DNA of 28,069 nt, taken from the IMG/VR virus record IMGVR_UViG_2874920711_000005. One strand, written 5' to 3'. The notes beneath the pieces were generated by a model, which saw nothing but the letters and a program-made list of their open reading frames with translations, was not told the origin of the DNA and made no database searches. Made by a program: the position numbers and the translations under genes. This document shows, in pieces, positions 10,806-11,116 of this stretch (its first letter is position 1; the number at the start of each line of letters is the position of its first letter). Source of the DNA: a virus. Its lineage: Duplodnaviria; Heunggongvirae; Uroviricota; Caudoviricetes.

Positions 10806-10880
10806 TGGAGCGGGCAGCGGGAATCGAACCCGCATCATCAGCTTGGAAGGCTGAGGTAATAGCCATTATACGATGCCCGC
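10806..10880 (-). tRNA. tRNA-Gly (anticodon UCC)
   Basis: Cloverleaf folded by eye: acceptor GCGGGCA/TGCCCGC, anticodon loop CTTCCAA, T-loop GGTTCGATTCC, 3' CCA; closely resembles E. coli glyT. Confidence 0.8.
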
Positions 10881-10883
10881 ATA

Positions 10884-10959
10884 TGGTGCCGACTACCGGA
10901 ATCGAACTGGTGACCTACTGATTACAAGTCAGTTGCTCTGCCTGCTGAGCTAAGTCGGC
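10884..10959 (-). tRNA. tRNA-Thr (anticodon UGU)
   Basis: Acceptor GCCGACT/AGTCGGC, anticodon stem ACTGA/TCAGT with loop CTTGTAA, T-loop TTCGATT, CCA end. Confidence 0.8.
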
Positions 10960-10961
10960 GC

Positions 10962-11038
10962 TGGCCCACCACCGAGGACTCGAACCTCGCACCGTCAACT
11001 TAGAAGGTTGATGCTCTATCCGGATGAGCTAGTGGTGG
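10962..11038 (-). tRNA. tRNA-Arg (anticodon UCU, reads rare AGA)
   Basis: Acceptor CCACCAC/GTGGTGG, anticodon stem TCAAC/GTTGA with loop CTTCTAA, T-stem CGAGG/CCTCG, CCA end. Confidence 0.75.
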
Positions 11039-11039
11039 T

Positions 11040-11116
11040 TGGTGGCCCTTGCTGGACTTGAACCAGCGACCTGGCGATTATGAGTCGCTCGCTCTGACCA
11101 ACTGAGCTAAAGGGCC
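11040..11116 (-). tRNA. tRNA with CAU anticodon, most similar to tRNA-Ile2 (ileX-like, lysidine, reads AUA); elongator Met not excluded
   Basis: GGCCCTTTAGCTCAG...GCGACTCATAATCGC...GGTTCAAGTCCAGCAAGGGCCACCA; resembles E. coli ileX from memory. Confidence 0.7.

Follow-up and report, generated by a model that had tools for sequence, protein, structure and literature searches.

The window analyzed here, a 28,069-nucleotide (nt) stretch of Caudoviricetes DNA (IMG/VR record IMGVR_UViG_2874920711_000005), contains exactly four tRNA genes, which ARAGORN placed together on the minus strand between positions 10806 and 11116 (Table 1). Read in the direction of transcription, this cassette encodes a tRNA with the anticodon CAU, assigned below to tRNA-Ile2, followed by tRNA-Arg(UCU), tRNA-Thr(UGU), and tRNA-Gly(UCC); the genes are separated by spacers of only 1 nt (A), 2 nt (GC), and 3 nt (TAT), and all four encode their 3' CCA. 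Scored against the Rfam tRNA model RF00005, they lie far above the gathering score of 29 bits (E values of 1e-13 to 8e-10), and each folds into a complete cloverleaf, as befits bacterial elongator tRNA genes. An initial annotation of this DNA had proposed four tRNA genes with these anticodons and had suggested a tRNA predictor as the check; ARAGORN called all four with the same anticodons and at exactly the coordinates given for the cluster. The order in which they had been listed (CAU, Arg, Thr, Gly) is the order of minus-strand transcription, although the strand itself was not mentioned.

At 99.6% identity, the window matches a prophage that in "E. coli" FDAARGOS_944 is integrated between ybhA and pgl and has the Shigella effector gene ipaHb at its end; to judge from the sequence, the window is a decayed lambda-like prophage, an element of the type found in Shigella and enteroinvasive E. 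coli (EIEC). Upstream of the tRNA genes are DUF1367 and YbcO genes and then, in the position of the antiterminator gene Q, a DUF1133 gene; downstream are a holin gene, a split lysozyme gene, and Rz. The cassette had been described as lying between Q and the lysis genes, and this position is correct; what had been missed is that both the Q-like gene and the lysozyme gene are disrupted in this copy.

Table 1. Features of the window that are discussed in the text, by position
Feature	Position	Strand	Basis and remarks
IS630 copy	1-1054		
Lysozyme gene, fragment	8017-8412		Phage_lysozyme half flanking IS2
IS2 inside lysozyme gene	8413-9742		IS2 TnpA and TnpB identified
Lysozyme gene, fragment	9743-9915		Phage_lysozyme half flanking IS2
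Holin S, phage 21 type, first lysis gene	9915-10130	-	PF04971, E 1.5e-35; homologue annotated class II holin
Intrinsic terminator before holin	10170-10196	-	10-bp stem, then UUUUUUCUUUC; -17.3 kcal/mol, z = -3.4
Long hairpin, ~28 bp, near perfect	10607-10687	-	-48 kcal/mol, z = -6.8; ~120 nt downstream of tRNA-Gly
tRNA-Gly (UCC), glyT identical	10806-10880	-	ARAGORN; RF00005, 64.9 bits
tRNA-Thr (UGU), thrU-like	10884-10959	-	ARAGORN; RF00005, 69.8 bits
tRNA-Arg (UCU), argN-type scaffold	10962-11038	-	ARAGORN; RF00005, 56.4 bits
tRNA-Ile2 (CAU), ileZ/ileY type, first cassette gene	11040-11116	-	ARAGORN "Met"(cat); RF00005, 70.5 bits
Predicted sigma-70 promoter	11117-11154	-	Consensus scan and conservation in related loci
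Intrinsic terminator, tR'-like	11203-11232	-	GAAAGAGCCCGC-UUUAU-GCGGGUUUUUUU; -18.2 kcal/mol, z = -5.8
DUF1133 gene in Q position	11306-11859	-	PF06576, E 9e-78
sok RNA (hok open reading frame at 13320-13532)	13470-13645	-	Above Rfam gathering score
QueH epoxyqueuosine reductase	13703-14389	-	PF02677, E 2e-65
IS630 copy	18860-20011		
isrK and C4 antisense RNA upstream of Rha-type gene	20560-20747	+	Above Rfam gathering score
RalA, antitoxin of RalR	25493-25671	-	Above Rfam gathering score

The CAU anticodon of the first gene had been read correctly in the initial annotation, which did not recognize the Ile2-like nature of the tRNA. The body was assigned by comparison with ileX, ileY, and ileZ: it is identical at 74 of 77 positions (96%) to ileZ of Shiga toxin (Stx) phages and at 71 of 77 (92%) to K-12 ileY. 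The anticodon stem-loop, GCGACTCATAATCGC, is the same as in ileX and ileY, and the acceptor stem (GGCCCTT...AAGGGCC) provides the pairs C4-G69 and C5-G68, which are determinants for recognition of tRNA-Ile2 by TilS. On these three grounds the gene is by its sequence a tRNA-Ile2 and not a tRNA-Met, consistent with the label tRNA-Ile that the annotation pipeline PGAP gave to an identical copy, and the tRNA is predicted to decode AUA after lysidine modification of C34.

The second tRNA is 83% identical to argN of Stx phages, which has the anticodon UCG, and 73% identical to host argU. Its cloverleaf is canonical, with every stem fully paired and C1-G72 as the first pair. The identity elements of arginyl-tRNA synthetase are A20, C35, and a purine at position 73, and all are present: the D loop, AUCCGGAUA, puts an A at position 20, and C35 and G73 can be read directly off the sequence. 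The scaffold at this second position occurs with several anticodons, namely, UCG in the Stx2 argN (locus L006, 3001-3077), UCU in the window, and UUU in 54 IMG/VR loci and in phage 689R5, where C33 replaces the near-universal U33 and position 73 is U; rare degenerate forms of the position-2 gene exist too (it is also found at 3158-3234 of locus L007).

The Lys(UUU) allele held by related cassettes at position 2 would fit an explanation in which the tRNAs are counterdefense spares, standing in for host tRNAs that anticodon nucleases or tRNA-targeting toxins cut or inactivate in the course of infection. Such a role is known for phage tRNAs elsewhere, as with the T5 tRNA-Lys against PARIS and with mycobacteriophage tRNAs. 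In this cassette, however, the Gly tRNA is identical to that of the host, the Thr tRNA differs only in its D loop, and neither the anticodon stem-loop of Ile2 nor the anticodon loop of Arg departs from the host sequence. Because the anticodon loops are the same, the cassette tRNAs would be cut like the host's and could help only by dosage, and we consider this explanation highly improbable. The idea that they are nuclease-escape tRNAs was rejected, there being no such difference from the host in the Gly or Thr tRNA, in the Ile2 stem-loop, or in the Arg loop.

The Thr and Gly genes are those for which a host source had been suggested, and their likeness to thrU and glyT is real. The tRNA-Gly is identical to K-12 glyT at 75 of 75 positions, as are 123 of the 150 prophage copies examined, and the tRNA-Thr is identical to K-12 thrU at 74 of 76, the two differences, U16C and U20C, both falling in the D loop. 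Of 150 Thr-Gly modules, 52 have this Thr variant, whose occurrence is linked with the Arg allele; the cassette copies of Thr, Arg, and Ile2 can all be distinguished from host genes by sequence. The further suggestion, that part of a host tRNA operon had been captured, did not survive comparison with K-12. There the order is thrU-tyrU-glyT-thrT, followed by tufB, with spacers of TCAAGTCC, 116 nt, and AGATGT, whereas the cassette lacks tyrU and thrT, joins Thr to Gly through the 3-nt TAT, and has spacers and flanks unrelated to those of the operon. Similarity between cassette and host begins at tRNA position 1 and ends at the CCA, so that nothing beyond the mature tRNAs is common to the two, and a host operon fragment was rejected on this comparison of spacers and flanks.

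The same evidence bears on the view that Thr and Gly are a neutral passenger, a passively captured piece of thrU-tyrU-glyT-thrT with no selected function. The identity of the two genes to their host counterparts (100% for Gly, 97% for Thr) and the fact that Thr precedes Gly, as thrU precedes glyT in the host operon, speak for such a capture. Against it stand the missing tyrU, the lack of any common spacer, upstream, or downstream sequence, the codon match described below, which favors selection, and the fixation of one and the same TAT junction across 865 of 5,426 complete E. coli genomes (16%; 1,046 places by exact match) and at least 120 IMG/VR contigs. In addition, tRNA bodies are highly conserved among enterobacteria, so identity cannot date a capture; either functional constraint or conversion against the host copy could account for the host identity of the tRNA bodies. 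Taken together, these points make passive capture quite improbable.

Directly upstream of the first tRNA gene lies a promoter-like element that the initial annotation had overlooked. It consists of a -35 hexamer, TTGCAG (11154-11149), a 17-nt spacer, a -10 hexamer, TATTAT (11131-11126), and a 9-nt GC-rich discriminator, TCTGCCTCC (11125-11117), that abuts the 5' end of tRNA-Ile2; the consensus scan reported it in the register TTTGCA-18-TATTAT. The pattern TTGCnn-17-TAT(T/C)AT-9-tRNA recurs in 125 of the 132 related loci compared. In these loci the spacer sequences fall into at least seven unrelated families, yet the spacing never varies, and we infer from this that the conserved element marks a genuine sigma-70 promoter of the host stable-RNA type, its discriminator being rich in GC. 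The promoter of the host thrU operon likewise abuts its first tRNA (TAGAAT-GCGCGC...).

Terminators bracket the cassette. The tR'-like terminator, a hairpin followed by U7, lies 74 nt past the stop codon of the Q-like gene and before the tRNA promoter; it was not among the results of a simple terminator scan, and loci with other Q types likewise keep a hairpin and a U run at this place. The second terminator precedes the holin gene, and analogous terminators follow the cassette in a related prophage of E. coli CFSAN029787 (locus L008) and, directly after argO, in an Stx2a phage. Between tRNA-Gly and this terminator, the trailer contains a long hairpin, a candidate RNase III processing site, whose stem is kept in four sequence variants with three pairs changed on both sides and about 12 on one side. 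The long hairpin with compensatory changes is also kept in an LT-IIb phage and in phage 683R6. It is the source of spurious sub-threshold matches to microRNA precursors in Rfam; the sub-threshold Rfam hits in 10100-11320 as a whole (microRNA precursors, Trp leader, isrK, and Plastid-ycf2) were discarded, as they reflect the hairpin, a terminator, and tRNA antisense strands.

These elements matter for the question of whether the tRNAs are purely late products, transcribed in the lytic cycle only, from pR' by way of Q antitermination, with no promoter of their own. The cassette does have the place of a late product, being on the late strand with the Q-like gene before it and the holin gene after it; the late genes are enriched in the codons of all four tRNAs, and the layout is the same in Stx phages, in which, according to one report (PMC6266700), the downstream genes depend on pR'. 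An exclusively late origin would leave unaccounted for a -35/-10 pair that keeps its spacing past a tR'-like terminator across diverged loci, as well as the terminators after the cassette. The Q-like gene of the window is, moreover, frameshifted; the late route would be dead here, yet the cassette is intact. We therefore regard dependence on Q alone as unlikely.

The Q-like gene itself shows only weak similarity to Q21. Its DUF1133 protein matched the Q21 structures PDB 6P18/6JNX in two short stretches (phmmer, E 4e-4) and scored 19.2 bits against PF06530 (Phage_antitermQ), under the cutoff of 26, and it is putatively a distant Q21-like late antiterminator. Judged against two intact homologues, from FDAARGOS_944 and CFSAN029787, the gene has lost one nucleotide from a G run near 11479/11480, which shifts the frame and truncates the open reading frame (ORF) at 11467; it is a frameshifted pseudogene unless a sequencing error in the homopolymer explains the deletion.

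Supply of tRNAs for particular codons is the standard explanation of phage tRNAs, and the codon usage of the prophage supports it here. We compared the 50 intact genes of the prophage (10,470 codons) with the 44 host genes that flank it (15,396 codons). Per 1,000 codons, ACA is used 13.8 times in the prophage and 4.9 times in the host, AUA 11.1 and 3.2 times, GGA 14.0 and 6.2 times, AGA 7.3 and 1.5 times, and AGG 5.3 and 0.8 times. ACA, AUA, and GGA have the three largest absolute excesses of prophage over host among the 61 codons, and AGA and AGG have the largest ratios; the cassette decodes all five, which lends good support to codon supply as its function. Overall, the cassette-read codons rank 1, 2, 3, and 8 by absolute excess and 1, 2, 4, 6, and 7 by ratio, AGG, AGA, AUA, ACA, and GGA being five of the top seven; by arithmetic done after the ranking had been seen, the chance that four codons picked arbitrarily would all rank among the top seven is about 7e-5. 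It had been suggested earlier that late-gene codon usage selected the tRNAs, and the codons concerned are indeed among the most overused; the bias is not confined to late genes, however, being present in late genes, early genes, and ipaH alike. The ipaHb gene at the far end of the FDAARGOS_944 prophage (locus L011, 7761-9587) contains 19.8 AGA, 11.5 AUA, and 14.8 ACA codons per thousand.

Our results suggest that the element is probably a tRNA supply cassette of a lambda-like prophage, matched to the codons of that prophage and organized as a self-contained transcription unit nested in the late operon. It is considered self-contained because it has a predicted promoter of its own after the tR'-like terminator and a terminator before the holin gene. 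The tR'-like terminator would stop unmodified late transcription, and the cassette promoter would start a new transcript just past it, so that the tRNAs could be made from a repressed, or here a defective, prophage without the lysis genes being expressed. During lytic growth of intact relatives, the tRNA genes would also be reached by read-through of Q-modified polymerase that had started at the late promoter. The spacers of 1 to 3 nt imply that the tRNAs would be released by RNase P and then trimmed by 3' exonucleases, as in host polycistronic tRNAs, and RNase III might cut the long hairpin in the trailer. The added copies would read AUA (Ile2), AGA and AGG (Arg), ACA and related codons (Thr), and GGA and GGG (Gly), codons that the host uses rarely, with one or two genes per tRNA, and that early, late, and cargo genes of the prophage use two to six times as often. 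The transcription start, expression in the lysogen, processing, modification, and benefit of the cassette tRNAs are all proposed here from the DNA.

Several observations weigh against this reading. CGA and CGG are also enriched in the prophage, yet the cassette has no tRNA for them. The codon ratios are probably somewhat inflated by a small host reference of 44 neighbors, some of them highly expressed; genome-wide E. coli values would give roughly 1.7- to 3.5-fold. The promoter matches the consensus at 9 of 12 positions, and as many matches are expected by chance in this region; its case rests on conservation, and many of the 132 loci are closely related. For the late promoter pR', no convincing -35/-10 pair was found between the stop codon of the Q-like gene (11306) and the terminator (11232). 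Lastly, in the relative CFSAN029787 (locus L008, 3004-3075), a gene labeled tRNA-Val is a decayed glyT copy in which the anticodon has changed from UCC to UAC and CCA to CAA, position 38 shows A38G, and one nucleotide is missing from the 3' strand of the acceptor stem, while the remaining three tRNAs of that cassette are unchanged; because Gly has decayed in this relative, selection on every member of the cassette is not universal.

The decay of the prophage raises the question of whether its tRNA genes are likewise dead relics, no longer expressed or used. IS2 has split the lysozyme gene: collinearity with the intact prophage breaks at the insertion, and there is a 5-bp target duplication. 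Two IS630 copies lie 18,960 bp apart, and none of the three insertion sequences is present in the FDAARGOS_944 prophage; such an insertion-sequence load is typical of Shigella. The split lysozyme and the disrupted Q-like gene mark this copy of the prophage as defective. These lesions, together with the relative in which the Gly gene has decayed, are what could be expected of relics. The cassette, on the other hand, is intact although both the Q-like gene and the lysozyme gene are disrupted: all four genes have perfect cloverleaves and high model scores, the promoter motif is preserved, and across loci 55 of 123 position-2 genes and the same 123 of 150 Gly genes are identical. That the tRNA genes are dead is, in our estimation, very unlikely.

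A bolder proposal is that the cassette is a "tRNA moron," in which a growth-rate-type promoter, a processing hairpin, and a terminator would allow expression from repressed or dead prophages and so boost AT-rich acquired genes. We hold this to be doubtful, with some small chance of being right. If it were true, several copies per genome would be kept in Shigella and EIEC, translation of ipaH and of virulence plasmid genes would be raised, and lysogenic conversion would act via the tRNA pool and not via a protein. Independently of this proposal, the codon-matched supply cassette is a textbook case of phage tRNAs that fit phage codon demand, and a clean quantitative example of it. Only the promoter and the bracketing terminators are a mildly new point. 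They suggest a Q-independent supply of tRNAs in lysogens, by homology also for ileZ-argN-argO of Stx phages; if true, this would bear on the expression of virulence genes rich in rare codons in Shigella, EIEC, and Shiga toxin-producing E. coli and on the reading of transcription across the Q-stx interval.

The 675 bp between tRNA-Gly and the holin gene, which is the position of stx in Stx phages, contain no credible ORF, and ORFs in 10131-10805 had no protein family match. One ORF of 141 amino acids (10336-10761) was tried as a cargo gene and taken as noncoding: it has no Pfam or NCBIfam match, was left unannotated by PGAP, and encodes a random-looking sequence rich in Cys, Trp, and Phe. The unannotated segment 10161-10507 (~345 bp) was also set aside as a special element, as it is ordinary upstream-of-holin DNA of lambdoid remnants, being 85% identical to that sequence in many of them; the iss region of ColV-type plasmids, with 639 plasmid places, is among its relatives, which 1,428 of 5,426 genomes carry.

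Elsewhere in the window are sok, isrK with C4 antisense RNA, RalA, and a gene for QueH, a tRNA modification enzyme carried as prophage cargo beside hok/sok. Of 5,426 complete E. coli genomes, 995 have the same queH gene, as does one cultured coliphage, HannyBb; a literature search found no paper on this prophage QueH gene. None of the four cassette tRNAs is among those that bear queuosine, and there is therefore no direct link between queH and the cassette.

How common such cassettes are depends on where one looks. Thr and Gly tRNAs at this place had been called less usual, which is true among sequenced phage isolates, where the Thr-Gly junction occurs in 6 of 50,697 phage records, but not in E. 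coli genomes, given the 865 genomes noted above. Among GTDB species representatives, the junction was found in E. coli, S. flexneri, and Citrobacter braakii, and one S. flexneri genome carries three cassettes. The Arg-Thr junction, which marks the four-tRNA form, is present in 25 complete E. coli genomes (51 places, with a maximum of five per genome) and in 52 IMG/VR contigs. Among the loci that were fetched, 58 had CAU-Arg(UCU)-Thr-Gly, 54 had CAU-Lys(UUU)-Thr-Gly, and 17 had Thr-Gly alone. With the 551-nt cassette as the query, none of the records in the phage collection reached 80% coverage, so the complete Ile2-Arg(UCU)-Thr-Gly set together with its flanks is in none of them; a literature search found no paper on this four-tRNA set, nor any containing ileZ, argN, or argO.

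Among the closest known counterparts is the ileZ-argN-argO cassette of Stx phages (933W type), which we compared via Stx2a_F349 (AP012530). It too belongs to the late strand and is found past Q and the terminator of Q, ahead of the holin gene; its first two genes are homologous to those of the window (ileZ 96%, argN scaffold 83%), a promoter-like element, TTGCAA-17-TATTAT, precedes ileZ, and a terminator follows the last tRNA, argO. The earlier statement that the cluster occupies the tRNA/toxin site of Stx phages is upheld by position, strand, and these identities. The differences are that argN has UCG where its counterpart here has UCU, that Thr(UGU) and Gly(UCC) stand in the place of argO, that toxin genes follow in Stx phages, and that their Q protein belongs to a family other than DUF1133. 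The argO gene (UCU; locus L006, 2911-2987) and the cassette Thr share a D arm, CAGCAGG(A)CAGAG, with an extra A at position 20, and their other differences include G35C and A73G, a combination of changes by which a tRNA for Thr would become one for Arg. As a candidate remoulded Thr(UGU) tRNA, argO was rejected, its identity to the cassette Thr (74%, hand count) being no better than that between argO and argU (73%); its possible origin from Thr is only a lead.

tRNA genes downstream of Q have also been reported for phages SfI, Sf6, P21, and ST64T (Sun et al. 2013, PMC3636060). In Shigella phage SfI, Thr(UGU) lies directly downstream of Q and ACA is overused relative to S. flexneri, just as in the window, and Thr(UGU) downstream of Q was noted for Sf6 and P21 as well (PMC3636060). 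SfI differs in having only Asn(GUU)-Thr(UGU), whereas the window has four tRNAs, with Thr paired with Gly(UCC). The identical Thr-TAT-Gly junction is found in the Stx2f phage phi467, the LT-IIb phage SerU-LTIIb, and the coliphages 689R5, 606R7, and PhiR47_1. In phi467 the Thr-Gly pair comes after stxAB and is not accompanied by Ile2 and Arg. The cassette of 689R5 also includes a first gene of the ileZ type and a homologue of the second gene, which in cassettes of the 689R5 type carries UUU (with C33) and not UCU. The four-tRNA cassette is a new combination within the known late-region tRNA cassettes of lambdoid prophages, of which it is an ordinary and common cargo.

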